From positions 1-64,000 of the forward strand of contig CAVWBU010000019.1 in assembly GCA_963753345.1 (NCBI GenBank): a stretch of DNA of 64,000 nt. Reading direction: 5' to 3'. The notes under the pieces are model-generated. The model had not been told where the DNA came from and searched no databases. It saw only the letters and a list, made by a program, of their open reading frames with translations. The translations under genes and the position numbers were made by a program. Below are positions 3,493 to 58,940 of the stretch, piece by piece (position 1 is the first letter of the stretch; every line of letters starts with the position of its first letter). Source of the DNA: an uncultured Fibrobacterota bacterium. GTDB lineage: Bacteria; Fibrobacterota; Chitinivibrionia; Chitinivibrionales; FEN-1185.

Positions 3493-3695
3493 ACGACCGC
3501 GAAGGATGCTCTTCATCTGCCACCATCATTGAGGACGGTTACGGGGACCTCACCTGCACAAGCTCCAATCCCAAATACGGTCCGCATACGTACTTTGTCA
3601 ATCCCGTTACCTGCCCTAATCAAAAGACACCGGTCTGGTGGAGCCAGTTTATAGCTTCCAACCATAAGTAGATAAAATTGGCATAAGCAATGGGA

Positions 3696-4127
3696 TGGGC
3701 GTTCCCTTCGCTTCGCTCGGGTCTCCTTCCGGTCCACCCCTTCGGGTGCTTCCAAGGGTCGTCGGCCTCCGGCCTCGGGCCGCCACGGCCTTATGGCCCA
3801 CAGGGCCGGGTCCGGGCGGCATCCCGCCTCAAGCGGGACCATTTTTCCAGTCGCCCCTAACGCGCGGCAAAGGAATTCTATTCGGTCAATTATTGTTTTT
3901 CGCGCCATCGATATCAAAGATACGCATACGTAAACGCGTATACGCGTCTACTTCTCAACTCTTTAGCTATTCAACGTTTCACCTTATTCAACTGCTCCAC
4001 GTGGGTGCCCCCCAGCCGAAGCAGCTTTCTTGCAAATCAACTTACTTGGGGGCCACCCAGAAGGGGGTAGCGAAGGACACCACAGGCCGAAGGCCGAGGA
4101 GGCCGGAGCGAGGGGGATACCTCCCCC
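3696..4127 (+). repeat. Dispersed structured intergenic repeat, copy A (module 1 + linker + module 2)
   Basis: TGGGCGTTCCC...CCTAACGCGCGGCAA (3696-3870), then linker, then GGGTGCCCC...GGGGCCACCC-AGAAGGGGGT...GGGGGATACCTCCCCC (4003-4127). The same anchors recur at 7 other loci. Confidence 0.9.
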
Positions 4128-4162
4128 GTGGATATTTCTTCTAGCGGAGTGCTTTTATCCAA

Positions 4163-6202
4163 TTAGCTAAATTCAACCGTATTCTTCCCATCCATTATTA
4201 TCAGCCCCTCAAAAAACTCCCCGGCCTGGCCCATGCACTTGAACGGCCTCGGGCTCTTGCCCGCGCCCACGAAGAAACCTACTTCGTACGCGGTCGCCCC
4301 CGCCGCGACTTCCTGTTCGTCAACATGCACGCCGACAAGGTCGACGCGGCAGTTCTTCCAGTAGGGCGGCGAATTTCTCGCCCGGGAAGGGCCGTAGGCA
4401 AGCCCCTTGGAGCGTCCCCACACAAACTGGAACAGCAGGCGGTCTTCCACGCTCGCCCAGAACGAGGGGCAGCTTATTTCCTTGAAGGTCTCACGGCGCG
4501 GCGTGAACAACTCGTGCTGCGAGCCGCCGGAGAAGTCGATGCTCTCCTTTGTCCAGACATCATTGACAATGTGGATGGGGGACAATAACTGTTCCCGGAG
4601 CGCGACATTTGTTTGCGCGGTGATCCTGTCGAACACGAGCAGCCCGTCGTCGCCCCAGGTCACCACGCGCACGTCCCTTGACAAAAGCAGTTCCCCGCCG
4701 CCGCCGAAGTAGTGGAGGCGGCCCATGGTCTCAAAGCCGTCTTTCTGAATACGGTCGTTGTGAAAAACGACGTCCCAACGCCTGACGCGTTCCCCGGTCG
4801 CCGGAATGCCGAGCATGTCGGCCCTGTGCTGGACCACCAGTTCCGGATAGCTGTGCACGTTGAGACCGATCACGGGATGGCCGGAAAGCGCCTTCCAGGC
4901 GACGCTGCGCGTCATGCGCACGTTGCGGCGGTAGCAGACCTCCACGAAGGGATAAATTTGCCGCGTGTCAACCGCGCTTTCTATCTGGCCCGTGGTGTAG
5001 AACCGGAACTCCTCGGGAAACGGCAGCACGCCAAGCATGGCAAGCTCGAAACCGACCTGGCTCTGAAAGAGAAGCTCCCAGCCTTCGTGCGCGGGCGTAA
5101 ACCCCAGAACCCAGGGCGCGCCGGCCGGGTCTCCGGGCGCGAGCTTCTCGTTCATCCATGATAGCAGTTTGCCGGTTATCGAAAACGCGCGCGGGTCGTT
5201 GTTCCACAGCCCCCACGCGAGCGAAAACGGCCGGGGCATAAAGTAGGGAAGGTCCTGGCCACCCGGCGCGTAAATCATGCCTGTGGGCAGGCAGAACCGG
5301 AGCAGCAGGTCGAACGCCTGCTGGTGGTTGGTGCGCCGGAAGTACTCCGGCGCGGGCCTGCCGTGGAGCGCGTAGGCCGCCATGGACAGCACCACCCACA
5401 TGCCGTAGCACAAAATGTCCGGATGGAAGAAGCCGTGGTTCTCCGCGGTGAGGTCGGGAAACAGGGTCTGGGTCGTTGCGAAATGGGAAACCGATTTCTC
5501 GAGGTATGCCGAATGGTCGGCCCTGTCGTTCTCCGACGAGGCGATGTTGAGCGCCCACACCGCGCAGGTCCGCTTCCAGCGCTCAATGTTGGGATGGCCG
5601 TCGCAGAGGTTGATGGCCCAGCTTAGGCACAGAACGTCGAAGGCGTTTTCCTCGAGCTTGGTGTCGACGTCACAGCCGCTCGGCGGCAGCACGCCGGTAA
5701 ACCGGTCGGCCTCGTAAGCGAGCACGCGCTTCACTTTTTCGACAAGCTCCGGAGCAAGCGCCTCGCGGGCGAGCCTGCACGAGAGGCCGAGGAGCGCCGC
5801 CCACAGGCTGCTGCGCCAGTTCTCGCCCCACCGCTTGCGCTCAAGGAACGCCTCCACGTCGCGGCTTCCCGTAAGGTGCGTGTCGCACGCCCATGCAATG
5901 CCTTTGCGGATAATGTCAATAAGCCGGTCTTTTGTCACCAGCGGCTCCAGAAGCGCGGTTTCGTTTCTGTAAAGAAACGCGGAGAGCGTGCAGAGCGCCT
6001 GCAGATGGGGACGCACCACGTATTCTATGACCGGCGACGACGACCCCACCGTCCGCATGTTGAATGCCTGCGGATCAACGGTGCCGAACAAGCCGCAGGT
6101 ATCGTCGAGGTCGTGCCACGAGGAAAGGTAGTAGCCCATGCCGCGCTGCAGCAGCTGGAGAACCGAATGCGGGTCGAGCTTTTCCTCAAAGGTGAGCGCC
6201 AT
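4163..6202 (-). CDS. Hypothetical 679-aa protein, possibly an alpha-toroid plus beta-sandwich (lyase-like) fold
   Basis: Long ORF with GC-rich codon usage. N-half looks helical (DTKLEENA, TAENHGFFHP) and C-half beta-rich. No signal peptide. Confidence 0.75.
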   Translation of the reverse strand: MALTFEEKLDPHSVLQLLQRGMGYYLSSWHDLDDTCGLFGTVDPQAFNMRTVGSSSPVIEYVVRPHLQALCTLSAFLYRNETALLEPLVTKDRLIDIIRKGIAWACDTHLTGSRDVEAFLERKRWGENWRSSLWAALLGLSCRLAREALAPELVEKVKRVLAYEADRFTGVLPPSGCDVDTKLEENAFDVLCLSWAINLCDGHPNIERWKRTCAVWALNIASSENDRADHSAYLEKSVSHFATTQTLFPDLTAENHGFFHPDILCYGMWVVLSMAAYALHGRPAPEYFRRTNHQQAFDLLLRFCLPTGMIYAPGGQDLPYFMPRPFSLAWGLWNNDPRAFSITGKLLSWMNEKLAPGDPAGAPWVLGFTPAHEGWELLFQSQVGFELAMLGVLPFPEEFRFYTTGQIESAVDTRQIYPFVEVCYRRNVRMTRSVAWKALSGHPVIGLNVHSYPELVVQHRADMLGIPATGERVRRWDVVFHNDRIQKDGFETMGRLHYFGGGGELLLSRDVRVVTWGDDGLLVFDRITAQTNVALREQLLSPIHIVNDVWTKESIDFSGGSQHELFTPRRETFKEISCPSFWASVEDRLLFQFVWGRSKGLAYGPSRARNSPPYWKNCRVDLVGVHVDEQEVAAGATAYEVGFFVGAGKSPRPFKCMGQAGEFFEGLIIMDGKNTVEFS

Positions 6203-6208
6203 GGGAAA

Positions 6209-6448
6209 TCAGACAGGCTCCTGCGGAAGCGGGTTGTCCATGGGATACAGCGCGATGTTGCCCTGCCCGGCGTCGTCGGCGCATTTGCGGGCAAATTCGC
6301 GGGCGGTGTTGGAGTCGTACAGCACCACGAAGCCGTCGCCGAAGAAGTGCGGCCGCCGCTCGCCCTGGAGCCAGGAGAGGCGTTTGTCAACTTCCCCGCG
6401 CAGAAACGAGGGATCGCTCCCCGAGTAGCCGATGCCGATGTACGCCAT
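6209..6448 (-). CDS. Small hypothetical protein (79 aa), probably co-transcribed with 4163-6202
   Basis: ATG start after an AT-rich region. 6-bp gap to the next gene on the same strand. Confidence 0.6.
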   Translation of the reverse strand: MAYIGIGYSGSDPSFLRGEVDKRLSWLQGERRPHFFGDGFVVLYDSNTAREFARKCADDAGQGNIALYPMDNPLPQEPV

Positions 6449-6513
6449 AATGTTAAAAATTAACAGGTGCCGGAGGTAAGATAAAAACTTGGCTTATTAT
6501 TTAATAGAAGAAT

Positions 6514-6693
6514 TGGGCGTTCCCCCGCTGCGCGGGGTCGGTCTCCCTGCGGGCTCGGCCGTTCGGCCTCGTTGCCGGATCGCCCTATGCCTATCGGCCG
6601 GGTCGACCGGCAATTCGCTTTTGCTCACCCTCCGGTCCACCTAACGCGCGGCAACAGGATTACGTTCTGTCAAGTGGCGCTACTTGCGCCATC
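6514..6693 (+). repeat. Structured repeat, locus B left half (module 1 plus partial linker)
   Basis: TGGGCGTTCCCC...CCTAACGCGCGGCAAC. The interior is nearly identical to copy C module 1. Confidence 0.85.
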
Positions 6694-6770
6694 CAGAATA
6701 CTCATAAAGCAATGCAAGAAGACCCCGATTAGTCAAGCTCAAGCAAATTGTGGATGGGTCTTACTACCCA

Positions 6771-6907
6771 GCGCCAGGCAGGACTGGAGGCCGCGCCAAA
6801 GCGCGGTGCTGCCTGACCACGGCCCGCAGGGCCCTTGTGGCAGGCAGCCCGAGGCCCGCGGCCGAGACCGGAAGGACGGCCGCCGCCGCGCAGCGGCGGG
6901 GCGCCCA
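6771..6907 (-). repeat. Structured repeat, locus B right half (module 1, inverted)
   Basis: The reverse complement reads TGGGCGCCCCGCCGC...GGCCTCCAGTCCTGCCTGGCGC, closely matching copy E at 18061-18198. Confidence 0.85.
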
Positions 6908-6965
6908 GATCTTCTCTTAAGTTCTAAAACAAATCTTGAAGCGCGGATATTATTTTTTGTGGTAT

Positions 6966-7041
6966 GGGGCTGTAGCTCAGCTGGGAGAGCGGTTGGTTCG
7001 CAATCAACAGGCCAGGGGTTCAATCCCCCTCAGCTCCACCA
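6966..7041 (+). tRNA. tRNA-Ala(CGC)
   Basis: 76-nt cloverleaf, GGGGCTG/CAGCTCC acceptor with G3:U70, anticodon loop TTCGCAA, encoded CCA. Confidence 0.95.
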
Positions 7042-7050
7042 TCCTTTCTT

Positions 7051-8304
7051 CTACGCAATCTTCCTGTCGACCTTCAATCCGAACACAGGCTCGGTCTTGC
7101 GCAGAATCACGTCGCGGGTGATGAGGCATTCCTTGATGTCGTCGCGGTCGGGTATCTCAAACATGATCGAGATGAGGACGTTCTCCAATACGCTCCGCAG
7201 GCCGCGGGCGCCGGTCTTCTTTGCCACCGCGGTCCGCACTACCTCGCGCAGCGCGTCCTGCGAAAAGGTGAGGCGGATGCCTTCCATGGAAAACAGTTTC
7301 TGGAACTGACGCACGAGCGAGTTCTTGGGCTGGGTGAGGATCTTGAGCAGGGCCTCGTCGTCGAGCTGGTCGAGCCCGAACACCGCAGGCACCCTGCCCA
7401 CGATCTCCGGAATCATGCCGTATTTGATGAGGTCATCGGGCTCGACCTTGCGCAGCATGTCGCCGATGGAGTTTCCCTGCTTGCGCTTGAGCTCGGCATT
7501 GAACCCCATGCGGCTCTGGCCGATGCGCGCTTCGATGACGTCTTCGAGCCCGACAAACGCGCCGCCGCAGATGAAAAGGATGTCGCGCGTGTTGATGGGA
7601 ATCAGGTTCTGCTCAGGGTGCTTGCGCCCGCCCTTGGGCGGGACGTTCGCGATGGTGCCTTCGAGGATCTTGAGCATGGCCTGCTGGACGCCTTCGCCCG
7701 ATACGTCGCGGGTGATTGACGGATTGGGAGATTTCCTCGCGATCTTGTCGAATTCGTCTATGTAAATGATCCCCTTTTCGGCCTTGGGAACTTCGTAGTT
7801 CGACACCTGCAGGAGGCGGACGAGCATATTTTCCACGTCCTCGCCCACATACCCCGCTTCGGTGTACACCGTGGCGTCGACAATGGTAAACGGCACCTTG
7901 AGGAGCTTCGCCAGGGTATGGGCGATAAGGGTCTTGCCCGTGCCGGTGGGGCCGATGAGCAGGATGTTGCTTTTCTCGATTTCCACGCCGTCGTCGTCGA
8001 GCTGAGTGCGGGACAGTATCCGCTTGAAATGGTTGTACGCCGCGACGCACACGCCCTTTTTCACGTCGTCCTGGCCGATCACGTACTGGTCGATAAAGGA
8101 CTTCATCTCCCGGGGCGTGGGGAGCGTGTCGAGGGCGAGGTCGCCGGGCGTTTTACTCTTGTCCTCACGCAGGATCTCGTTGCACATCTCGACGCATTCG
8201 GCGCAGATGTGCACGCTCGGGCCGGTGATGAGCTTGGCCACGGTGTCGGCGCTCTTGCCGCAGAAGCTGCACTTGATGCCCGGATACTTCGGCTTCTGGT
8301 TCAT
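7051..8304 (-). CDS. clpX: ATP-dependent Clp protease ATP-binding subunit ClpX
   Basis: CSFCGK zinc finger, GPTGTGKT Walker [24 protein letters not shown]. Confidence 0.98.
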
Positions 8305-8305
8305 C

Positions 8306-8893
8306 TCACTTTTCCCTTTTGGTAAGGATCTCGTCGATGATGCCGTAGGCAAGCGCTTCTTTCGCGTCCATAAAGAAGTTACGGTCGGTGTCCTTGCTGA
8401 TCACGCTCACGGGCTGGCCGGTGTGCTTTACAAGGATGGAATTGAGCGTTTCCTTGATGCGCATGATTTCCTTGGCGTGGATCGCGATGTCGGTGGCCTG
8501 GCCGCCCGCGCCGCCGGCCGGCTGGTGCAGCATGATGCGCGAATTGGGGAGCGCGTAGCGCTTTCCCTTGGCGCCGGCCGCAAGCAGAATGGCCGCCATG
8601 CTCGCCGCCTGCCCGATGCAGATGGTGCTTACATTCGGCTTGATGAACTGGATGGTGTCGTAAATGGCGAGTCCTGCCGAAACCACGCCGCCCGGAGAAT
8701 TGATGTAGATGGTGATGTCCTTGTCCGAGTCTTCGTATTCGAGGAAGATGAGCTGGGCCATCACGAGGTCGGCAATGGTCTCGTCGATCTCCTGCGCCAT
8801 AAAAATGATGCGTTCCTTGAGCAGCCTGGAGTAGATGTCGTAGGAACGCTCGCCGCGACCGGTCTGTTCGACGACAATCGGAACTAATGACAT
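8306..8893 (-). CDS. clpP: ClpP protease proteolytic subunit
   Basis: [45 protein letters not shown]. Confidence 0.98.
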
Positions 8894-8956
8894 GCTGATA
8901 TCCTCTTGTTTATGATGTAATGCGTGCGATGAATTTGTCAAGATACTTGAAAGATT

Positions 8957-9443
8957 TGGGCGTTCCCCGTCAATGTAGAGACGTAGCGCGCTACGTCTCT
9001 ACATTGACGGGTCGGTCCACCCCTTCGGGTGCTTCCAAGGGTCGTCCCTGCGGGCTCGGCCGTTCGGCCTCGTTGCCGGACCGCCCTGTGCCTGTCGGCT
9101 GGGTCGGCCGGGAACGCGCTCCTGTGCGCCCTCCGGTCCACCTAACGCGCGGTAGAGGGATTCTTGTAAGTCAATTGCTTTCTCGCGCCAAACCGTCGCC
9201 TCACCCCGGCCGCTATCGCGGCCACCCCTCTCCACTCGGTGGAGAAGGGAAATGCAAATTGTTCCTTTTGTATTCCCGCTGTCAACTGTCAACCGTCAAC
9301 TTTCAACTCTCTTTCGTCGGTGCCCCCGCAGCCGAGGCTTCTTCTTGCAAACAAACTTCCTTGGGGGCTACCCAGGAGGGGGTAGCGCAGGACCCCGCAG
9401 GCCGAAGGCCGAGGAGGCCGGAGCGAGGGGGAAACTTCCCCCC
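8957..9443 (+). repeat. Structured repeat, copy C (complete, with nested REP-like, 27-nt and boxC-like inserts), between tig and clpP
   Basis: Same module 1 and module 2 anchors as copy A. Perfect 46-bp palindrome at 8966-9011. Confidence 0.9.
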
Positions 9444-9453
9444 CAAGTCATTT

Positions 9454-10737
9454 CTATTTCTTTTCCGCAACATCTTCTGCTTTTTCTGGAACATATTCTC
9501 CAATCAGAAAATCCAGCGTCTTCCGTTCGCGGATGTCCGACCTTATTCTATTGGTGGTGCCGTTGGCGCGCAGCGACTGTTTGAGCTGTTCGAACGGCTG
9601 CCCGTATGCGGCGGCAAGTTGCTCCACCTGGCGGTCCACCTCCGCCTGGGTCGCCTTGATCTTTTCCCTGGTGGCGACATACTCGATGATCTTGTAGCGC
9701 TTGATCGCCCGTATCGCCGAGTCGCGGTACTTCCGGTTGATTTCCTCCTCGGTGGGAAGCGGTTCGCCGGGGCGCGCATATTGCCGGATTTCGTCGGCCA
9801 TGTGTTCGAGGTAGCTTGTGATGCGCGATTCCGGGACCTCAAAAGGGCTCTTGTCCGCGAGCTTGGCGATGGCCTCGGAATACGCCTCGTTCTTCGAGCG
9901 CTCCTTTTCCCTGAGCTCAAGGTCCTTGCGCACCGCGTCGGCGAGCGCCGATTCGGTCTCGAAGTTGCCGAGCTTTTTGAGGAATTCGGGCGAAAGCGCG
10001 GGCACGATCTTTTCCTTGACCGCGTTGATCTTTACGGAGAAGAACGCGTCCTTGCCCGCAAGGTCTTTTGAGGAGAAGTCCCTGGGGAACCGGATGTCCA
10101 CGTCCACGGTTTCCCCGGCGCTGCGGCCGATGAGCGCCTTGTCGAATTCCTTTATTTCGCCGTTGCCGAGCTCGACCGGGTATTTGGGGTTCGAAAAATC
10201 CTTGCGCTCAACGCCGTCAATGATCACCTTGAGGTACTCGATGGCAACGCTGTCGCCCTTTTTCGCGGGCCGGACAACGTCGACGAGCTCGGCATGGCGC
10301 TGGCGCAATTCCTCGACCGCCTTTTCCACATCGCCGTCCTTGACTTTCCTGGGTTCGGCCCTGATGTTGAGGTTCGTGTAGGACTTTATTTCCACAGGCG
10401 GGTCGATTTCGAATTCTATGGAAAAGGAAACCGGCGCGCCTTCATCCGCCTTGAGGTTGCTTATTTTTCCCCGGCTGATGGGCGAAAGCGAGTTCTGTTT
10501 GCATGCGTCTTCGAACGACCGCTCGACAACGTCTTCCACGGTCTGCGCGTAGATCGATTTGCCGAACCTGGATTGCACAAGGTCGAGCGGGACTTTTCCG
10601 GCCCTGAAGCCGGGCAGGGAAATTTCCTTTTTGTACTGCGAAAGTTTTTTGTTGTACTCGCCTTCGACGTCCTCCTTGGGGATTTCGATGTCGAGAATGC
10701 GAATGTATGAACGCGGTTCGGAAATGGCAGCCTTCAA
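9454..10737 (-). CDS. tig: Trigger factor
   Basis: TTG start after GGAGG, PGFRAGKVP ribosome-binding motif, FKBP-like middle domain, tig-clpP-clpX synteny. Confidence 0.95.
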   Translation of the reverse strand: MKAAISEPRSYIRILDIEIPKEDVEGEYNKKLSQYKKEISLPGFRAGKVPLDLVQSRFGKSIYAQTVEDVVERSFEDACKQNSLSPISRGKISNLKADEGAPVSFSIEFEIDPPVEIKSYTNLNIRAEPRKVKDGDVEKAVEELRQRHAELVDVVRPAKKGDSVAIEYLKVIIDGVERKDFSNPKYPVELGNGEIKEFDKALIGRSAGETVDVDIRFPRDFSSKDLAGKDAFFSVKINAVKEKIVPALSPEFLKKLGNFETESALADAVRKDLELREKERSKNEAYSEAIAKLADKSPFEVPESRITSYLEHMADEIRQYARPGEPLPTEEEINRKYRDSAIRAIKRYKIIEYVATREKIKATQAEVDRQVEQLAAAYGQPFEQLKQSLRANGTTNRIRSDIRERKTLDFLIGEYVPEKAEDVAEKK

Positions 10738-10767
10738 ATAATCCTCCCGAAAAAAGAAATCCGGTGT

Positions 10768-10849
10768 TGCGAGAAGGGGGACTCGAACCCCCACAGGTTT
10801 CCCTACGAGATCCTAAGTCTCGCGCGTCTGCCAGTTCCGCCATCCTCGC
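10768..10849 (-). tRNA. tRNA-Leu(TAG)
   Basis: Reverse strand starts GCGAGGATGGCGGAACTGGCAGAC. Anticodon arm CGAGA-CTTAGGA-TCTCG, long variable arm, classic position upstream of tig. CCA not encoded. Confidence 0.95.
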
Positions 10850-10974
10850 AGACCATACAGCCTGATAAAAGCTTTTTGAACTTGGGCTATATGATTGTAA
10901 TTGAGGAAAATAACTGATACGGATGTGAAGTTACAAGCTAAGTATGCTGCAACTACTGGTTAATAGCACTCAGG

Positions 10975-11408
10975 TGGGGGAAGTGTCCCCCTAGGGTGCG
11001 ACTTCCGGCGCCTCCTTGCTAAATGCAAATTCCACAAAATCCGGAGGCGCCGGCGATCCGCACCCATACCCCCTCGTGGGTAGCCCCCAAGTAAGTTGAT
11101 TTGCAAGAAAGAAGCTTCGGCTGCGGGGGCACCGAGAAGAATAGTTGAGAGGTTGAGAAGTTGACACGTGTACGCGTAGCCGCGTTTACGTGTGCGTGTT
11201 TGGGACACAGATTGGCGCGAGAAAAGTGTTTGACTGATAAGAATTCTGTTGCCGCGCGTTAGGGGCGACTGGAGGCCGCGTTGGAGCGCGGTGCCGCCCG
11301 GACACGCCGCGCAGCGGCCTCGTGCCGAGGCGGCCCGAGGCCGAAGGCCGAGACCGGAAGGAGAACCGACCCGAGCCTGAGTCTTGACGAGGGGGAGGGA
11401 AACGCCCA
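10975..11408 (-). repeat. Structured repeat, copy D (complete)
   Basis: The reverse complement has TGGGCGTTTCCC...CCTAACGCGCGGCAAC...GGTGCCCCCGCA...GGGGGACACTTCCCCC. Confidence 0.9.
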
Positions 11409-11424
11409 ATTTTTTATTTATTTT

Positions 11425-13257
11425 TTATCGCGACGTATTAAAAGAATACCTCAGCCAGATGCGGTGCTGGGAAAGGTCGAGCAGGGGGCCGCTCGAAAGC
11501 GGATGGTTGTACTGGAACGAGTACAGATAGTCAAGCGTTACCGATCGGGAGATTCTCCAGGAGACGCTGGCATTGACCCAGTACACCCAGTAATCCGGAA
11601 GAATGGCGTGCTTTTCGAGAATAGGTTCTATGGGAAATTGTACGATGACCTCTCCCTCGGCGGTAATCGCCCGTCCGAGCCGAAGGGTCGCGTCGACCGA
11701 CGCTTCGGGACCGTAGGTAATGTTCACGGCGTCGTCTACTTTCTGCAAGATCTTGTAGTTCGCCTGGAAACGGGTGAGCAGGGTATCGAGCGTGTCTGCG
11801 GAGAGGGAAGAGGAAGACTTCTCCTCTTTGGTCTTTATTGCCGAGTCCCCTTCGTTCGTTATGTCCTGGTACTGGCCCCAAACGTTGCGTTGAGAATAGC
11901 CTATCCCAAGCCTGACTTTCGCGTCGAACACCCCAGAGGTGATCGCGTCCACATTCGCGCCGACGCCGAGATCGACGGACATCGGCGAAAATGACGGCTT
12001 GAGCCTTTTCGAACGCGAAACCGAGTCAACCGCGGTCACCGCCGAATCGGGGCCGGTAATGAGGAACAAGTGAAGTTGGGACGATTCCTCGAAGCGGTCG
12101 TACAGCGGGAAGAAGCTGGTCTCGAACTGCATCCGGCCGTATGGCCCGAGCCAGTGCATGATACGCCATATGTACAGGGAATACACCCGGAAATCATCGG
12201 ACGTGTTGTTGATTTCCGAGATGTTGAGATTTGAGAAGTTGAGCTCCTCGTCGAAGAAGAACTTGGTGTCCCACTCGCCCCTGCCTCTGGAGTGGTTGAC
12301 GCGGAGGTTGGTGAGGAGCACAATGGCCGAGTTGTTCGTGTCGTTGGTGGTGTTGAAGAGAATGCTGCCGCCGATATCGAGGCCGTATTTCCAGTGCGAC
12401 GTAATCTTGCGCGAAGCTTCACCGATATCGGTGACGCCTCCGCTCAGGATCTTTCCGGTCACCGAATCTTCAACCGCGATGAACTGGGTAAGCTCGCCCG
12501 GAAGGAGGCGCACCGTCACAAAGCTGGTGACGGCGTTATAGCCTCCGCCGGCCCCAAAAATCTTGTACAATCCCGGGTTGAGGATCCAGGTCTTGATGCG
12601 TTCGCCCTTGGTCGGGTCCCTTCCGTAGGCCCTTCCGAACGGTTCGAATTCGTCAAGCCGCACCAGTTCGTAGCTTCCCCGGAAGGGAATGTTGCTTTCG
12701 CTCACCACGTCCACCTGAAGGCCGCACCAGGTGGGGAACAGCATGGTGGTCCTGCCTTCGTCGACCACCACCCATTTCTCGATGCGCTGCTTGGTGGTGC
12801 CGTTTCCCAGGCGAACGCTGTAGGTGCCGGGAATGAGGCAGTATTTTTTCCCGGGCTTGCCCGTGAGCACCACCTTGCCGACCGAGTCGGCGATCTGGAC
12901 GTCGGGTTCGAGGGAAGGGTCCGATATTCTCGGCACGAACACCGCGCCTTTACCGATGGGAATAGGGGTTTCGTCTTCGTCGACCTGCTGGGTAACCGGC
13001 GGCGCGTCCCAGGTCTTTACCGCTTCTACGTACCATTCGGGCGCGTAAGGGGAAGAGACCGGCGCATGCACCGAGGCCGTATCTGCGACCACGCTCGCGC
13101 TTGCCGCGCCGGTTATTTCCTGGCCGGGGAGCGTCGGCGGCGGTTCGGCAAAGGCAACGGAGGCGCACAGCGCAAGAGCGAGACAGGGGAGGCGCACGAA
13201 TGCCGAAAGACGGCGACGCTTTGCGGGCAAGGCGAGCATATCACTCACCGCCTTCAC
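11425..13257 (-). CDS. Secreted, probable outer-membrane protein (N-terminal Ig-like domains plus C-terminal beta-barrel-like region)
   Basis: Signal peptide ending AFA. Alternating aromatic beta-strand pattern in the C-half, ending IWLRYSF. Overlaps the upstream lipoprotein gene. Confidence 0.7.
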   Translation of the reverse strand: MKAVSDMLALPAKRRRLSAFVRLPCLALALCASVAFAEPPPTLPGQEITGAASASVVADTASVHAPVSSPYAPEWYVEAVKTWDAPPVTQQVDEDETPIPIGKGAVFVPRISDPSLEPDVQIADSVGKVVLTGKPGKKYCLIPGTYSVRLGNGTTKQRIEKWVVVDEGRTTMLFPTWCGLQVDVVSESNIPFRGSYELVRLDEFEPFGRAYGRDPTKGERIKTWILNPGLYKIFGAGGGYNAVTSFVTVRLLPGELTQFIAVEDSVTGKILSGGVTDIGEASRKITSHWKYGLDIGGSILFNTTNDTNNSAIVLLTNLRVNHSRGRGEWDTKFFFDEELNFSNLNISEINNTSDDFRVYSLYIWRIMHWLGPYGRMQFETSFFPLYDRFEESSQLHLFLITGPDSAVTAVDSVSRSKRLKPSFSPMSVDLGVGANVDAITSGVFDAKVRLGIGYSQRNVWGQYQDITNEGDSAIKTKEEKSSSSLSADTLDTLLTRFQANYKILQKVDDAVNITYGPEASVDATLRLGRAITAEGEVIVQFPIEPILEKHAILPDYWVYWVNASVSWRISRSVTLDYLYSFQYNHPLSSGPLLDLSQHRIWLRYSFNTSR

Positions 13258-15670: not shown

Positions 15671-15767
15671 AAGAGCACAACCCTCGGGATGTATTCGCGC
15701 AACGAAAGCGCGACGAAGATGCTTTCTCATTATACAACAGGCGCTTGCTTTTCCGCAAGAAGACATA

Positions 15768-16011
15768 ACCGCAAAGACGCAAAGGCCGCAAAGTTTGACA
15801 TGAAGGAAAGATTAAAACTTACCAAGCAGTTCATAAGTATGAGCACATATTCAGACTCGCCGCTCGTCCTGAGCTTGTCGAAGGATGAGCGACCGTTCAT
15901 GGTTCGACAAGCTCACCACGAACGGCAAACGTGTCCTTACTAATGAACTGCTTAGTAACATTGCAAAGTTGAAACATTGGCATTCCTTTGCGTTCTTTGC
16001 GTCTTTGCGGT
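15768..16011. repeat. Three nested inverted repeats between mlaE and mlaF
   Basis: Outer IR 15768-15793/15986-16011 (24/26 match). Middle IR 15819-15839/15938-15958 (19/21). Inner stem TGAGCTTGTCGAA/TTCGACAAGCTCA within 15860-15925. Confidence 0.85.
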
Positions 16012-16023
16012 GAACTCTTCTTA

Positions 16024-18017: not shown

Positions 18018-18479
18018 TGGGCGTTCCCCTTGCCTTCGTCAAGAAATTTAAATAAAAAGATGGGCGCCCCGCCGCTTCGCGGCGGCGGCCGTCCTTCCGG
18101 TCTCGGCCTTCGGCCTCGGGCCACCTCGGCCCTATGCCGCGGTAGCGGCGGGTCCGGGCGGCACCGCGCTTTGGCGCGGCCTCCAGTCCTGCCTGGCGCG
18201 CGGCAACGGAATTCTATTCAGTCAATTGCTTCTTCTGGCGCCAATAGGTATGCACAATAAATCAGCCAGAGCTTCCTCTTTGCATTTTTAAACTCTTCAA
18301 CTATTCGACCTTTCAACTCTCTTTCTCGGTGCCCCCGCAGCCGAAGTTTCTTTCTCGCAAATCAACTTCCTTGGGGGCTACCCACGAGGGGGTATGGGTG
18401 CGGATCGCCGGCGACTCCGGCTTTCGTTGCATTTGCCTGGGAGGCGCCGGAAGCCGCACCCTAGGGGGACACCTCCCCC
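18018..18479 (+). repeat. Structured repeat, copy E (complete from 18061, preceded by a truncated second start at 18018)
   Basis: TGGGCGCCCC...CCTGGCGCGCGGCAAC, linker, module 2 almost identical to copy D. Confidence 0.9.
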
Positions 18480-18555
18480 ACATAAAAATTAATTAGATTG
18501 TCGAATTAATAATCTATTTTCAAATAACTCGATTCATCGCCTGGAGATTTCCTTT

Positions 18556-29207: not shown

Positions 29208-29236
29208 TTGACAAGCGGTATATTTTCGCGCATTAT
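29208..29236 (+). promoter_or_regulatory. Candidate sigma70-type promoter
   Basis: TTGACA-17 nt-CATTAT upstream of the paralog pair. Confidence 0.4.
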
Positions 29237-29378
29237 CGAGGCGGACAATCAATCGGCCGGAAACAACGCACCAGGCGTTTCCGGCCGACTGCCGTCGGCA
29301 TGCGGAACTCTATTTTCGCGCTCACACGGAAATCGCCCTATACGTGCGGTATTAACTGCTCTTCAGAAAGGGACAGCT

Positions 29379-31088
29379 ATGGGAGGGAAAGACTGGATTC
29401 GCAATTGTGTTCTTGGACTTTTGGCAAGCGCCGCGCTCTGTGTTGCGCAGGAGACAGATTCGGCAAACGGCGACCAGCCGTCACCGGCCCCTCAGTCCAA
29501 TCCGTATTCGCAAACAATTGCAAGCGCAGAGGGTACTCAAGCACGGCCTCTTGCGGCGGCGGAAAGTCCCCTGCGCAACAGCCTGTCGCTGTTCTTTGCG
29601 CTCGATGAAGGTGAAATCGAGCATGGGGTGGAGAACGAAAACAGCTCCGCCAACCCGGTCAGCCACATGTGGCAGCAGAGCTTGTGCTTCGACCTCACCA
29701 ATGACGCAGTGTACAAGGAAAGGCTCAGGTTGGTGGTGAGCATGGAGTGCCACCTTTCCTTTTCCGCAATGCAACTTAATAATTTTCCAGCCACGCTAAG
29801 TCCGGATTTTTCCTTTTACCCCAACGATGTCGAACTCAGCTACGCCATCGGAGGATCACCGGCCAGACCATGGCTAAATGTGGCTGCCGGCTATTTTCCG
29901 TTCAAGTACAACCCGGACGCAAAGCACCTTGGCGAATATTTGCTTCGCTGTTCCGCGTATCCGACTTTTATAGTCACCAATAACGAATTTCCCATGACAC
30001 GCGAGCTCGGCTTCCATGTGTTCGGCAATTCCGACTGGCTCATCAATCCCGCCATCGACCGCATCAAATGGGACTTGATGCTCACCAGCGAAACCCACGA
30101 CTGGCCCACCCAGGACTGGACCGTAACCGGGATTCTTTCCAATAACCTCTTTAATTTCTTTGACATTGGCGCCGGTGTATCATTCCAGAGAATTATTCCC
30201 ATCAACGACACCATCACGACTCCCCGCGGCAAGGCGGTATTTACGTCCGGCCATATTACCAGCAATTTTCTTAATGCCAATGGCGACACTACCTACTTCA
30301 CCTTCAAATCCACCAAGATCATGGGCCGGGCATCCATTTACCCGCAACGATTCATTCCTCAATTCAGGATACCGTTTGCCCCTGTTTTTGGAGATAAGCC
30401 GTTCTTTGGAACAGAGGACCTCAAGATTTACGGCGAAGCGGCAATTCTCGGGTTGGACAACCAGACCGTCTATTTCGACAGCGTAATCGCCCCCGGAGAC
30501 ACGGTTCTCATGAAGGCGCCCGAAGCCAATCAGTATTACGATTCGCTCGTGGACAGAATTCCCTATATGGTCGGCATAAATCTTCCCACCAACCCTCTCC
30601 TGAGCTATGGTATACTCGCCTGGGTGCTCGGCAAATGGCTCCAGGATGAAACCGGCGACGGCATCACCAATATGCGATTCGGATCGGCCAATATCCCCCT
30701 GGGCGTTCTCACCATTCCGGTGGCGCTTGCCTGCGGGCCGTTGCAGCACTATTGTGGAGTGGATCTCTCCCTCGACCAGATTTCGCTGGAATTCGAACAC
30801 TACAGCAACCGGTTTCCCAACAGCGATTATAACGCAATCAACTTCATCCCGGCAGGGCTTATCCCGACCCCGCGGGCTACGGTTTTCGTTAAAAACCCGA
30901 GCGATATAAAATATGCCTTGACATTCAAGAAGTCGTTCGCGGACCAGCGGTTCGCGGTTTCCGGCCTCATTGGACGGGACCACATGCGCCCGCCGTTTCT
31001 CGGCCCGGCCGCCCAGGGTGACTGCGACGATGAGCTGCAGGCAAGGAATCAATGGTGGTGGACGCTCAGACTGTCGGCGAATTTTTAA
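29379..31088 (+). CDS. Putative outer-membrane protein, paralog 1
   Basis: Signal peptide, AGYFPFKYNPDAKHLGEYLLR..AYP, C-terminal WWWTLRLSANF (terminal Phe as in beta-signals). Confidence 0.7.
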   Translation: MGGKDWIRNCVLGLLASAALCVAQETDSANGDQPSPAPQSNPYSQTIASAEGTQARPLAAAESPLRNSLSLFFALDEGEIEHGVENENSSANPVSHMWQQSLCFDLTNDAVYKERLRLVVSMECHLSFSAMQLNNFPATLSPDFSFYPNDVELSYAIGGSPARPWLNVAAGYFPFKYNPDAKHLGEYLLRCSAYPTFIVTNNEFPMTRELGFHVFGNSDWLINPAIDRIKWDLMLTSETHDWPTQDWTVTGILSNNLFNFFDIGAGVSFQRIIPINDTITTPRGKAVFTSGHITSNFLNANGDTTYFTFKSTKIMGRASIYPQRFIPQFRIPFAPVFGDKPFFGTEDLKIYGEAAILGLDNQTVYFDSVIAPGDTVLMKAPEANQYYDSLVDRIPYMVGINLPTNPLLSYGILAWVLGKWLQDETGDGITNMRFGSANIPLGVLTIPVALACGPLQHYCGVDLSLDQISLEFEHYSNRFPNSDYNAINFIPAGLIPTPRATVFVKNPSDIKYALTFKKSFADQRFAVSGLIGRDHMRPPFLGPAAQGDCDDELQARNQWWWTLRLSANF

Positions 31089-31247
31089 CCGCGATTCTCC
31101 GAAAAAGAATCTGATGAGGCCGATTCCAACCACGGAAGAAGTTCTTTGATGAAAAGCAAGTTGACAGTTCCGGAATCCGACAAGCGCACCGACAACGCGA
31201 ACCGCTGCTGCAGGGCGGGCCGGCTGTTTCATTCAGGAGGGAAACAA

Positions 31248-32966
31248 ATGATAGCGAGGATAGGTCTGGCAATGCTCGCTGGGGCATGCCTGAGTCTCGG
31301 GCAGACAATAGATTCGGCGGGCAGGGGACTCTCCGGTTCCGCGGGCCAGACAGGCCCCGAAAACGGCATAGGGCTTTTGCAGCTGATTCAGCCGCGGGCC
31401 CTATGGGAAAAAACGGGCTTTACGTACCGCGAAAACCTGTTCCTCTGCCTTGACGAAGGCGAGGCGGAACAGGGCATGTACGATCACCCGATTGCGCCGG
31501 ACACGGCCGGGTACACCAGGCTGGACCATGTATGGCTCCAGGATATGGTATTCCACCTCACCGAGGACGTAACCTACAAAGAGCGGCTTCGCCTCATCAT
31601 GAGCGTCGAAGCGGAATTGAATTTCTCCATGGTTCACCGGCTTGAGTACCCTAGCACGCTGATACCGGCATTTACTTTTTATCCGAACGACATGGAATTG
31701 CAGTATTCGGTTGGCGGCACTGTTGCGCATCCCTGGTTTTCGGTGGCGGCGGGGTACTTTCCCTTCAAATACAATCCGGACGCCAAAAATCTTGGCGAGT
31801 TTCTGCTCAGATGCGGCGCCTATCCTACCATCATTCAAACAACGCCGTTCTTCCCCATGACAAGGGAACTCGGGCTTCATGTGTCAAGCAGTTCCGATTG
31901 GTTCATGAACCCCGCAATAGACCGCGTTCAATTGGACCTGATGCTCACGAGCGAGACGCACGACTGGCCCGTTCAGGATTTTACGCTCACCGGGATCCTA
32001 TCGAACAACCTTTTTAACATTCTGGACCTGGGAGCCGGCGTTTCGTTTCAAAGGCTGATGTCGGTCAACGAGTTGCTTACGACTCCCCACACGGGGGATA
32101 GTGTTTCATATCTTGACCAGAATGCGCAGACACAATACTATACGTTTGCATCCACCAAAATCATGGGTCGCGCCGCGATCAGTCCTCTCAGGTTCGTACC
32201 GCAATTCAAGATTCCGCCTTCCTTTATTTTCGGCGAGCATTCGTTCTTCGGAAAGCAGGATCTTAAGGTCTATGGCGAGGTCGCGGTCCTGGGCACGCAA
32301 GACTATGTGAAATACGGTTCTTTTGCCCGGGTAGGCTCCATAGACCCAAACACGGGCGACTCCGTTTACACAAACGTGCCTGGAACCGGAACTCCGCTGC
32401 CGGATTCCCTCAATTTTTATAACAATATCAAAGACAGAATGCCAATGATGCTCGGCATTGATTTGCCCACAACCCCGCTGCTGGCCTATGGCGTTCTTCC
32501 TTTTCTCCTCACCAAATGGCTTTACGATGAAACTGGTTCGGACATCCGGCAACTTGCATGGGTGACGCTCGTTCCCGCGCTCGCAAGCGGTGTGGCCGAG
32601 CATTTCCTGGGCTGGGACATGGGGCTCGACGAATTCTCGCTGGAATTCGAATGGTTCAGCCAGAAATATACCAACAGCGACAGGCATCAAATAAACCCGG
32701 AGGATGGGGGAGGTCATGGCGGCATACCGATACCTTATACCAACGACACATGGAATGCGGCCAATTTGGGCAAGGCGGAACCGACAAAGTATTCCTTGTA
32801 TTTCAAGAAGGCGTTCCTCGACAGATTCGCGATTTCCGGAATTGTCGGGCGGGACCATATGCGTCCGGCATCAGTAGGCGTTCCGCCATCCATCCAGCAG
32901 ACCGACGATTTTCTGAAGACGAGGGAGAACTGGTACTGGATGCTCAGACTGTCGTCTAATTTCTGA
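31248..32966 (+). CDS. Putative outer-membrane protein, paralog 2
   Basis: RBS AGGAGG, signal peptide, AGYFPFKYNPDAKNLGEFLLR..AYP, DLMLTSETHDWP, C-terminal WYWMLRLSSNF. Colinear with paralog 1. Confidence 0.7.
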   Translation: MIARIGLAMLAGACLSLGQTIDSAGRGLSGSAGQTGPENGIGLLQLIQPRALWEKTGFTYRENLFLCLDEGEAEQGMYDHPIAPDTAGYTRLDHVWLQDMVFHLTEDVTYKERLRLIMSVEAELNFSMVHRLEYPSTLIPAFTFYPNDMELQYSVGGTVAHPWFSVAAGYFPFKYNPDAKNLGEFLLRCGAYPTIIQTTPFFPMTRELGLHVSSSSDWFMNPAIDRVQLDLMLTSETHDWPVQDFTLTGILSNNLFNILDLGAGVSFQRLMSVNELLTTPHTGDSVSYLDQNAQTQYYTFASTKIMGRAAISPLRFVPQFKIPPSFIFGEHSFFGKQDLKVYGEVAVLGTQDYVKYGSFARVGSIDPNTGDSVYTNVPGTGTPLPDSLNFYNNIKDRMPMMLGIDLPTTPLLAYGVLPFLLTKWLYDETGSDIRQLAWVTLVPALASGVAEHFLGWDMGLDEFSLEFEWFSQKYTNSDRHQINPEDGGGHGGIPIPYTNDTWNAANLGKAEPTKYSLYFKKAFLDRFAISGIVGRDHMRPASVGVPPSIQQTDDFLKTRENWYWMLRLSSNF

Positions 32967-33028
32967 CCGGAACAAACTTTGCGCCGGGAAGCGACCAGGC
33001 GGACCGGTGCTCCCCCGTGCAATAGTTC

Positions 33029-40528: not shown

Positions 40529-40776
40529 CCTCACCCCTGCCCCTCTCCGCTAGGAGAGGGGGCTTTAAGTAGAAAGCTGCGATCCTTCAAGTGCCTTTGC
40601 ATTTCTTGTCTCGATTCCACTTCCGCTCGTGGGTGCCGCCACAACAATGTATGGTCTTGCAGCTGCTTTATCAAGGCGGCCACCCAGGAGGGGGTAGCGG
40701 AGGAACGGACGCGCATTAGGGATGCTGGTTTGTAAACCGGCGCGGCCGGGCCGCAGCGAGGGGGATACTTCCCCCT
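40529..40776 (+). repeat. Structured repeat, copy F (boxC-like hairpin plus module 2 only)
   Basis: GGGTGCCGCC...GGCGGCCACCC-AGGAGGGGGTAGCG...GCGAGGGGGATACTTCCCCC. Confidence 0.85.
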
Positions 40777-40835
40777 TTAACAAATTCTTTTCTAGAAAAA
40801 ATTCACAAAGAACCGAGGCATTAAAGCCCGAAAAC

Positions 40836-46856: not shown

Positions 46857-46865
46857 GAAAAGACT

Positions 46866-47318
46866 TGGGCGTTCCCCGCGCCGAAGGCGCGGGTCGGTTC
46901 TCCCTCCGGTCTCGGGCTCGCCCTCGGGCCGCCTCGGCCCTATGCATTTTGTGGAGACGTAGCGTGGTACGTCTCCACAAAATGCCGGGTCCGGACGGCA
47001 CCGCTCTCTAGAGCGGCCTCCGGTCGCCCCTAACGCGCGGCATAAGTTGGCATCCGCAAATCACATGTGCGCTTCGCAATAAATACAGAACTTCTCGGGG
47101 AACAGTTCCCCCTCTCCTGGAGGAGAGGGGGTCAGGGGGTGAGGCCTTCCACAATGGTTGCGTTGCGAAGGGACGACGCTTCGCGAGCGTCAGCGAGTGA
47201 ACTCGCGCGGCCCTTCGCAGGAGGGGGTGTGCCCCCGGATCGCCGCCGCGTTTGAAAGGATGTTATAGTTGACGCGGCGGAAGCCGGGGGCCAGGGGGAA
47301 ACGCGAAGCGGTGCCCCC
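46866..47318 (+). repeat. Structured repeat, copy G (complete, divergent module 2)
   Basis: TGGGCGTTCCCC...CCCTAACGCGCGG. REP-like insert at 46951-46978, inverted boxC-like hairpin at 47108-47144, module 2 with replaced stems around GGAGGGGGT. Confidence 0.85.
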
Positions 47319-47334
47319 ACCAGGTATTGATAAA

Positions 47335-56834: not shown

Positions 56835-56835
56835 A

Positions 56836-56965
56836 AATGTAGATTGTAGAATTTAGAATGTAGATTGAAATACAAGAGAGGTTTCTAACCGGCGACAATG
56901 CGCAGCCGCAGCTGAATAAGTCTTTTTTTTTAAATTCTACATTCTACAATCTACATTCTACAATT
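56836..56965. repeat. Inverted pair of heptamer tandem arrays, (A[AT]TGTAG)n and (CTACA[AT]T)n
   Basis: 56836-56870 and 56931-56965 are reverse-complementary arrays of 4-5 heptamers. Confidence 0.85.
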
Positions 56966-58349: not shown

Positions 58350-58494
58350 CAATGCGCCCCGTAATGGATTAGAAGGACGCCAGTTAGGACGTTTGTTTGA
58401 CGTTTATTCTTAAGACCAATTTATTATACAATATGACAAGAGACAGTGCACGTCTTTTTATCAAGAAGGCAGAATCAGGATAAAACGCGTCTAT

Positions 58495-58897
58495 GGGGGG
58501 AGGTCTACCCCGTCGGGTACTTCCAGGGGTCGTCCCTCTCGCTCCGGCCGCCTCAGTCGGCGTCCTCCGCTACCCCCTCCTGGGTGCACCCCAAGTGGAA
58601 GCAGTTGCAGAACCAGACACCTATGTGGGGGCACCCTTGGAGAGCAGTTGAAAAGTTGATGAGTCGAGAGTTTGAGAAGTTGACACGTTTACGTATGCGT
58701 CCTTTGGATACCGATTGGCGCGAGAAGAGATAATTGACTGATAAGATTTCTGTTGCCGCGCGCAAGGGCGGACTGAAGAGTGCGCTGGAGCGCATTGCCG
58801 CCTGATCCCTAGCCGAAGGCGGTTGGGACAGGCGGCAACGAGGCCGTTAGGCCGAGCTCGTAAGGAGGCCCGCCGCCGCAACGCGGCGGGGCGCCCA
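58495..58897 (-). repeat. Structured repeat, copy H (complete)
   Basis: The reverse complement reads TGGGCGCCCC...GCGCGCGGCAAC, linker close to copies A and D, then GGGTGCCCCCA...GGGGTGCACCC-AGGAGGGGGTAGCG. Confidence 0.9.
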
Positions 58898-58940
58898 AGT
58901 CTTTTCTATGAAACTGGAAGATGAAGATATAGAGTAACTA

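Follow-up and report, generated by a model that had tools for sequence, protein, structure and literature searches.

Most of what is known about interspersed hairpin repeats comes from Proteobacteria, in which they are short single palindromes associated with RAYT transposases. In enterobacteria, units called repetitive extragenic palindromes (REPs) are built into bacterial interspersed mosaic elements (BIMEs), mosaics in which the units alternate in orientation and are joined by conserved linkers. Other families (ERIC, Correia elements, RUP/BOX, bcr1 and RPE) mostly have terminal inverted repeats and target duplications. A REP is a 20-40-bp palindrome with an unpaired GTAG or CGTC tag, often paired with another in opposite orientation and lying behind genes; GTAG-type REPs are linked to RAYT genes flanked by repeats, and RNA roles for REPs are allowed (PMC3733652). 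REPINs with their RAYT transposases provide the repeat-enzyme system for comparison (PMC3337134, PMC3116915). Here we describe a family of much larger composite repeats in an uncultured Fibrobacterota bacterium (Chitinivibrionales) from peat and sediment. The starting point is a 64-kb stretch of its genome (bases 1-64000 of contig 19, hereafter the window), in which the 432 nt at 3696-4127 are one copy of the composite repeat.

The genome assembly (G000) comprises 4,516,072 bases in 55 contigs and is 94% complete. Profile searches with nhmmer found 407 copies of one structured unit (module 1, ~150 nt) and 289 copies of another (module 2, ~131-136 nt) in it. With blastn, the family resolves into 480 merged loci with a combined length of 137.8 kb (~3% of the genome). 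About 200 kb of sequence occurs in two or three versions that are 90-99.9% identical (contigs C1-C14, C44, C45, C53-C55 and others). These are strain-variant contigs, in line with a contamination of 4.8%; they help to reveal how modules come and go, and they slightly inflate the copy counts.

The nhmmer matches group into 450 clusters, which follow a strict grammar. In the commonest type, with 198 clusters, module 1, a linker and module 2 lie on the same strand ('1+ 2+'). This three-part unit has a linker of ~120 nt that leads from GAATTCTATTCAGTCAA through GCGCCAATCGG to two to five TCAAC repeats. Solo modules account for 133 (module 1) and 79 (module 2) clusters. Module 1 also occurs as inverted pairs with the 5' ends outward ('1+ 1-', 27 clusters) and module 2 as pairs with the 3' ends outward ('2- 2+', 2 clusters), and there is no cluster of the opposite sense, either '1- 1+' or adjacent '2+ 1+'. 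Of the 231 two-module clusters, 227 obey this 'heads-out' rule. Linkers, too, are conserved (n=180, median length 118 nt), with the order GAATCTATTCAGTCAA, TTGCGCCAATCGG, a variable middle and then 2 to 5 TCAAC at 8-nt spacing. The linker motifs that a first-pass annotation of the window had pointed out are borne out in these 180 linkers: 81% have GTCAA near the start, 89% have CGCCA and 74% have at least two TCAAC, compared to 0 to 3% of control flanks for the last. The TCAAC/GTTGA run (for instance at 11135-11190 and 58654-58693) is C-rich and G-poor on the + strand, and its 8-nt period places TGA in all three reverse-strand frames. An IHF site in the linker, as in BIME-1, was rejected: WATCARNNNNTTR, a form of the E. 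coli IHF consensus relaxed at one base, was seen in 3 of 180 linkers, and shuffled sequence gave 2.4. Module 2 is not demonstrably an inverted module 1, an idea that was tried and set aside. The nhmmer cross-matches between the modules are non-significant (E 0.9-9) and local, around a GGCC-TTC-GGCC hairpin, and all of them (16/16 and 3/3) lie on opposite strands.

The family is real, striking in scale and structurally unusual, and it is of a known general kind (REP/BIME-like). We think it probable that these are lineage-specific, non-coding and non-autonomous mosaic repeats of the BIME/REP-like type with far larger, multi-helix units. Like BIMEs, they are high-copy extragenic mosaics of hairpin units with conserved linkers, apparently in alternating orientation; like BIMEs and REPs, they lie mostly behind genes, are enriched between convergent genes and vary in occupancy between relatives. 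In contrast to the 20-40-bp single palindrome of a REP, the units here are 131-150 nt long, have a multi-branch junction and are built of 5 to 9 helices. The commonest composite joins two different modules, whereas a BIME pairs two inverted copies of one REP. Further differences from BIMEs are the linker, with its 8-nt-period TCAAC run and no enrichment of the E. coli IHF consensus, and the divergent gaps, which are not avoided. As for the REP tag, an unpaired GTAG stands 5' of H2 in 124 of 193 full-length module-2 copies, although a 4-mer is weak evidence; the remaining copies have GTGT (25), GTAT (17), GGAG (10) or GCAG (8) at this position. No tag of the GTAG or CGTC type is evident by eye in the module-1 consensus.

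The family resembles REPINs in being non-autonomous, in its heads-out doublets, in its long persistence in a lineage and in its patchiness among close relatives. Unlike REPINs, it has no RAYT (PF01797) in G000, no module-flanked Y1 gene in congeners and no master sequence, and the two module-1 copies that face each other at locus B (6484-6937) form arms that are only 71% complementary. It differs from DDE-type miniature inverted-repeat transposable elements in having neither terminal inverted repeats nor target-site duplications. By general description, ERIC, Correia, RUP/BOX, bcr1 and RPE elements are similar in being 100-200 nt long, folded, intergenic and able to be co-transcribed; the absence here of terminal inverted repeats and target duplications sets the family apart, by description, from most of them. 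The family works like a BIME yet falls outside the REP-RAYT family as that is defined by unit size, RAYT partner and master sequence.

Searches of Rfam agree that the family is undescribed. No Rfam 15 family reaches its gathering score on the elements, so a likeness of the modules to the Flavo-1 and Acido-Lenti-1 motifs, multi-hairpin and GC-rich motifs recurring in intergenic DNA, is unsupported, although it was proposed at first pass. At gathering score, the window contains only three tRNAs. In a search of 3600-11500 at E up to 10, nothing over the elements there (A to D in Table 1) reaches gathering score; the four overlaps there involve unrelated families, lie at an element edge or in a linker and score 15.8-19.5 bits (E 3.6-5.4). 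The earlier remark that no description of the bipartite unit was known stands against public catalogues, given the lack of an Rfam match and the lack of any description of Chitinivibrionales or Fibrobacterota repeats in the portions of the literature consulted.

To model the fold, structures were written by hand, since RNAalifold gave poor consensus folds on nhmmer or MAFFT alignments, and were fitted with Infernal as models R1 (module 1) and R2 (module 2). Mutual information across all columns was dominated by subfamily linkage and register shifts and was used as a lead only. R1 has 150 model positions with 41 pairs in nine helices, including the closing stem GCGYY/RRCGC. R2 has 136 positions with 27 pairs in five helices; module 2 combines a long-range helix with two hairpins, one long and one terminal (GGGGGA/TCCCCC), and has an invariant GAGGGGG(T) anchor.

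Both modules show strong covariation. In the 150 best module-1 copies, 92.9% of cells are standard-paired, compared to 79.1% with shuffled partners and 38-47% when one side is slid; for 150 module-2 copies the values are 95.1%, 86.0% and 41-66%. Compensatory changes occur at 32 of 41 pairs in module 1 and 15 of 27 pairs in module 2. For each module, none of 500 shuffles matched any observed measure. The covariation of the module-1 closing stem, first noticed among the window copies, holds genome-wide: in 150 copies the two variable pairs are UA 105 / CG 41 and UA 108 / CG 39, with just 3 G-U and 1 to 3 unpaired cells. These results agree with the suggestion of the first-pass annotation that structure rather than sequence is conserved. 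Three helix columns with two or three states occur in many combinations, the eight commonest in 20 to 69 copies each, and the two helix sides stay matched throughout. So many combinations argue that the pairing is more than subfamily linkage, and the mixing of helix states with matched sides points to recombination or gene conversion among copies. Arguments from special tetraloops (UUCG or GAA loops) were dropped because the helix register makes loop assignment ambiguous.

Helices are maintained by strict Watson-Crick pairing, to an equal degree on the two strands. When three columns in which G-U is fixed or common are left out, wobble pairs make up ~1% of cells and are as rare as A-C mismatches: module 1 has 38 GU+UG and 55 AC+CA in 5741 cells, and module 2 has 45 and 20 in 3493 cells. 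The GU:AC counts do not depend on whether a copy is sense or antisense to its neighbouring genes (3:6 vs 9:21 and 7:5 vs 16:10; Fisher p = 1.0 for both modules). If the structure were selected in a transcript, G-U pairs would be expected to be tolerated there; the counts, though small, favour complementarity maintained at the DNA level or in source copies, and point away from an RNA gene.

The elements were also considered as coding sequence, and this was rejected. The lengths of the 198 composites fall almost evenly in the three classes modulo 3 (66/74/58). A frame open over at least 90% of the element is found in 34.8% of these composites on the + strand and 2.5% on the reverse strand; with such even lengths, the open frames reflect composition rather than coding. 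The stop-poor + strand gives rise to 149-codon open reading frames (ORFs) at 3695-4144 (+) and 10960-11409 (-), exactly on elements A and D. These are artefacts of a kind that gene callers probably annotate.

Occupancy shows that the copies are mobile. Both modules are high-copy in four of five congeners (at least 75 and at least 81 matches), with hundreds of copies in G001, and a profile search found neither in the fifth, G003 (99% complete). Orthologous sites were compared for empty ones, including the gap between tig and clpP; such sites were found, and occupancy differs between relatives. The tig-clpP gap holds a full composite in G000 and module 1 with the linker, without module 2, in G005. 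In G002, G003 and G004 it measures 66-160 nt and has no module by nhmmer, and alignment does not place it on the element; a clpP -35-like box adjoining the element site is conserved in all five genomes. The site of element D, behind the tRNA at 10768-10849, is filled only in G000 and is empty in G003, G004 and G005. Differences are seen even between strain variants: contigs whose flanks are 99% identical have a solo module 2 (C4) or a full composite (C16, C5) and part precisely at the 5' edge of module 2, and other strain-variant pairs differ by internal module-1 deletions. Copies are therefore acquired, lost and exchanged one module at a time, over the times that separate species and even strains. 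They are dispersed and come and go between species, and so behave as the non-autonomous mobile DNA that the first-pass annotation had suggested.

The family is also old. Module 1 was not found in other genera of the same family, and a few other genera of the order Chitinivibrionales have weak module-1 matches. These are a shortened module 1 in which P1, P3 and the single-stranded CCCTCCRGTCC are kept and a stub replaces the long P4. Shortened homologues in other families of the order indicate a family that is old and has expanded in one clade. For module 2, 59 of 63 anchor stretches among the matches listed from public metagenome-assembled genomes (MAGs) come from three Fibrobacterota (Chitinivibrionales) MAGs, and the other four are single matches in unrelated organisms, compatible with chance.

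With occupancy this variable, it is highly improbable that the copies are separate genes for small RNAs or riboregulators in a multicopy family of structured non-coding RNAs. Such genes would account for the complex conserved fold with its many compensatory changes and for the absence of a coding frame, but not for occupancy that is not conserved between species, nor for copies that stand in either orientation a few nt from neighbouring genes, nor for modules swapped and truncated between strains. Wobble pairs are rare and there is no Rfam match; of the features expected for a stand-alone family of non-coding RNAs, neither conserved occupancy nor tolerance of G-U on the transcribed strand was seen. 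The first-pass annotation had offered two options, an element moved as single-stranded DNA (ssDNA) or RNA, or a multicopy structured RNA. That copies move is borne out, through an intermediate that may be ssDNA or RNA (no reverse transcriptase was found in G000), and the structured-RNA part is weakened by wobble that is rare and independent of direction and by the variable occupancy.

Placement relative to genes differs from background (chi-square p 7.6e-17). Among 390 placed clusters, 118 lie between convergent, 209 between tandem and 63 between divergent genes, compared to 370, 1913 and 372 of 2655 background gaps; convergent gaps are enriched and divergent gaps are not depleted. A head that faces a stop codon is a median of 24-28 nt from it, and the distance from a head to a start codon that it faces is 66-120 nt, enough to accommodate a promoter. 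Solo module 2 is mostly antisense to its neighbours in tandem contexts (30 antisense vs 6 sense, p 7e-5), and solo module 1 has no orientation bias (30 to 28). Orientation is not biased with respect to GC skew (32 of 79 composites on the G-rich strand, p 0.11). Position-specific A/T-rich tracts lie outside both heads. Beyond GCCCAA, T makes up 41-84% over 10 positions from the third flank base, with at least 50% at nine of them (n=361); beyond TCCCCC, there is a run of A followed by a run of T (n=253).

From the fold and the placement we infer how such repeats may spread and persist. The form that matters would be folded ssDNA, or an extruded cruciform, and a trans-acting enzyme, one other than a Y1/RAYT transposase in G000, would recognise the folded modules. 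After insertion, copies would persist only where they are harmless, ~25 nt behind stops and 66 to 120 nt ahead of starts. Transcription through the elements would then matter. The antisense bias of module 2 may reflect selection on read-through transcripts: a sense module 2 might be polar on downstream genes, or an antisense one might give the upstream mRNA a protective 3' hairpin. Either would be in keeping with how REPs behave.

Several observations weigh against mobile BIME-like repeats of this kind. One is the lack of a mover: G000 has no match to Y1 (PF01797, E up to 0.001), the TnpB zinc-ribbon (PF07282) or reverse transcriptase (PF00078), and G001 has no Y1 match despite its hundreds of copies. 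Y1 genes are present in the congeners G002, G004 and G005, and no module lies within ~1.5 kb of them at six loci. G002 encodes six identical 144-aa Y1 (IS200-like) transposase ORFs (L065, L068 and others), none of which adjoins a module. We consider it improbable that the elements are degenerate IS200/IS605-type derivatives (PATE-like), with module 1 as the left and module 2 as the right subterminal hairpin end, carried as ssDNA by a Y1 enzyme acting in trans or since lost. This would explain the fixed order and orientation of two different ends in 198 composites, the strand-symmetric Watson-Crick pairing and the Y1 genes of three congeners. It would also fit the absence of insertion signatures. 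The first-pass remark that there is no clear target duplication and no terminal inverted repeat holds in 161 composites: the longest word shared by the two flanks averages 4.93 nt (4.98 in shuffled pairings), and the measure of flank complementarity, as a closing helix or terminal inverted repeat, averages 5.57 (5.45 shuffled). However, neither G000 nor G001, each with hundreds of copies, has a Y1 or TnpB match, the Y1 loci of the other congeners have no module nearby, and orientation is independent of GC skew. The solo modules and the 27 inverted module-1 pairs are also unexpected for two-ended elements.

Other candidate partners in G000 were examined. The only multi-copy element seen besides the modules is a 930-bp repeat (C18:84600-85529, with copies on C32, C35, C49 and C24) that is 98-100% identical between copies and has inverted ends and two overlapping ORFs (187 and 164 aa). 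It reads as a putative IS5-like insertion sequence. A link to the modules was rejected, as its terminal repeats are unrelated. G000 also encodes two small GIY-YIG proteins, one of them (C27:259555-262773, L134) within its own tandem array of 111-nt hairpin repeats, which are unrelated to the modules. The other gene has a module 1 ~360 nt away, as do many genes, and a GIY-YIG link was rejected.

These genes bear on the proposal that the modules are sites at which a host ssDNA nuclease or recombinase acts (Ssn-like GIY-YIG, or attC-like for a tyrosine recombinase), and that they mark self DNA or serve recombination and have spread for this purpose. Structure conserved over sequence, strict Watson-Crick pairing and a sequence core conserved across the order would suit such sites, as would a GIY-YIG gene inside a hairpin array. 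We nevertheless find it very unlikely, because the array on C27 is a different repeat with no module nearby, the second gene is no closer to a module than many others, and the elements lie between housekeeping genes such as tig and clpP rather than in cassette arrays.

The age and sites of the copies are a second difficulty for mobile BIME-like repeats. Median pairwise identity is 0.71. Module-1 copies have a median identity of 0.91 to their nearest neighbour, with 11 of 314 at 0.97 or more, and module-2 copies one of 0.87; copies this diverged give no sign of a recent burst or of a REPIN-like master copy. No insertion event was found with both junctions, and the differences between empty and filled sites go beyond a clean insertion. 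DNA contigs from four sequencing runs stop within the repeats, and because none of them spans an empty site they gave no junctions; the 14 runs listed include none of RNA. Limits of the analysis count here as well. Gene calls come from our own crude caller, the pair counts come from alignments fitted to our own structures, relatedness among copies inflates the shuffle test, and the wobble tests have few counts.

Some of the difficulties would also fit a role at the RNA level. Composites in tandem contexts are antisense in 68 cases and sense in 30 (p 1.6e-4), only 22 of 80 composites point the same way as most genes of their region (p 7e-5), and 144 of 150 module-1 copies share one fixed G-U pair. 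The modules could act as RNA, as co-transcribed exonuclease blocks in 3' untranslated regions or as bidirectional terminators, each copy being kept by selection on the folded RNA with DNA spread secondary. The position of heads shortly behind stop codons, the enrichment in convergent gaps and the T-rich tracts just outside both heads point the same way, as does orientation that tracks transcription and not GC skew. RNA roles are allowed for REPs in the literature cited above (PMC3733652). We consider this reading unlikely on balance. Wobble pairs are no commoner than A-C and have the same ratio in sense and antisense copies, divergent gaps are not depleted, and the U-rich tracts begin 4 to 10 nt from the last stem instead of directly after it. 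In addition, close relatives with the same genes have empty sites.

The coordinates of all copies in the window are given in Table 1. The eight loci claimed by the first-pass annotation are all real and lie approximately where it had placed them, with covariance-model E-values of 1e-6 to 1e-43. A repeat search independently ties seven other places in the window to 3696-4127, and an alignment of six copies has the same block order.

Table 1. Composite-repeat elements in the 64-kb window, by module (strand relative to the window; bit scores from models R1 and R2 unless stated otherwise)
Feature	Coordinates	Strand	Evidence
Element A, module 1, with optional extra hairpin CCACCCCTTCGGGTG	3690..3873	+	nhmmer 79.1 bits; R1 43.1 bits, E 4.8e-6
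Element A, linker: GAATTCTATTCGGTCAA, CGCGCCA, then TCAAC repeats with 8-nt period	3874..3996	+	sequence read; consensus of 92 linkers
Element A, module 2: H1, GAGGGGGT anchor, H2, terminal GGGGGA/TCCCCC hairpin	3997..4132	+	R2 144.6 bits, E 4.5e-41
Element B, left module 1, GCGTT/AACGC type	6508..6657	+	R1 160.2 bits
Element B, right module 1, inverted, GCGCC/GGCGC type; heads face outward	6761..6913	-	R1 103.2 bits
Element C, module 1, lengthened P2 hairpin and optional hairpin	8953..9158	+	nhmmer 8953-9154; R1 9003-9158, 85.3 bits
Element C, linker	9159..9311	+	between two model matches; TCAAC run present
Element C, module 2; end 7 nt from tig stop codon (tig by Pfam)	9312..9447	+	R2 147.2 bits
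Element D, module 2, long H2 variant	10971..11140	-	R2 81.1 bits
Element D, linker, GTTGA period-8 run on + strand	11141..11245	-	repeat family with 8-nt spacing
Element D, module 1	11246..11414	-	R1 78.6 bits
Module-1 5'-end fragment, just upstream of element E	18018..18050	+	alignment, by eye only
Element E, module 1, GCGCC/GGCGC type	18055..18209	+	R1 114.9 bits
Element E, linker	18210..18320	+	between two model matches
Element E, module 2, long H2 variant; 89% complementary to D over 140 nt	18321..18484	+	R2 85.3 bits; inverted-repeat search
Element F, solo module 2	40625..40780	+	R2 109 bits
Element G, module 1	46860..47046	+	R1 85.5 bits
Element G, diverged module 2	47201..47323	+	R2 14.1 bits, E 0.0067 with filters off (weak)
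Element H, module 2, optional hairpin inside its terminal hairpin	58491..58642	-	R2 80.4 bits; repeat search
Element H, linker	58643..58749	-	between two model matches; repeat search
Element H, module 1	58750..58903	-	R1 126.1 bits

The optional hairpin (core CCACCCCTTCGGGTGCTTCCA) is found at 3726-3779, 9009-9062 and 58497-58550 and explains the weak R1 score of element A (43 bits). Across the genome, 35 to 47 module-1 copies have it inserted at one constant position, and in element H it lies within module 2; its position inside the terminal hairpin there means that helices can gain nested hairpins. The long P2 variant (GAGACGTAGCGYGSTACGTCTC) is seen in only 3 copies.

By Pfam, the genes that flank the window elements are ordinary housekeeping genes: GH18, clpX, clpP, tig, DAHP synthase and GAPDH, and further rlmN, a TonB-dependent receptor, a MerR regulator and gpsA. 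The first-pass annotation had seen no transposase in the window; our check covered the 15 ORFs that flank elements, rather than every ORF, and the statement holds for those. The window contains other repeats. At 56835-56965, AT-rich inverted repeats of ~45 nt, made of short TGTAGAAT-like repeats, stand 41 nt apart between two ORFs and are unrelated to the modules. A 37-nt inverted repeat of CGCAAAG units (15757-15793 / 15986-16022) encloses ~190 nt between two genes. The neighbouring long ORFs at 29208-31088 and 31146-32966 have stretches of 73-75% identity in common (29988-30225 vs 31851-32088 and 30771-31091 vs 32625-32969) and appear to be tandem paralogues.

The repeats have practical consequences for these genomes. 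They break short-read assemblies at every copy and create spurious ORFs of ~150 codons, and annotators of these MAGs are advised to mask them. Compared to REPINs and RAYTs, the family is distinctive in its Fibrobacterota lineage, its share of ~3% of the genome, units five times larger, a multi-branch fold, the heads-out grammar and the apparent lack of a RAYT. More tentatively, the family may represent an undescribed partnership between a repeat and an enzyme, which we regard as unlikely. A dedicated non-Y1 protein would copy or convert folded ssDNA modules, with the core (P1, P3 and CCCTCCRGTCC) kept across the order, and the heads-out composite with its TCAAC tract would serve as a two-way boundary between transcription units. 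If this is true, the partnership would be a new long-lived intragenomic 'symbiont', analogous to REPIN-RAYT and mechanistically different from it. The mover, if found, would widen the known routes by which bacterial genomes breed non-coding DNA.

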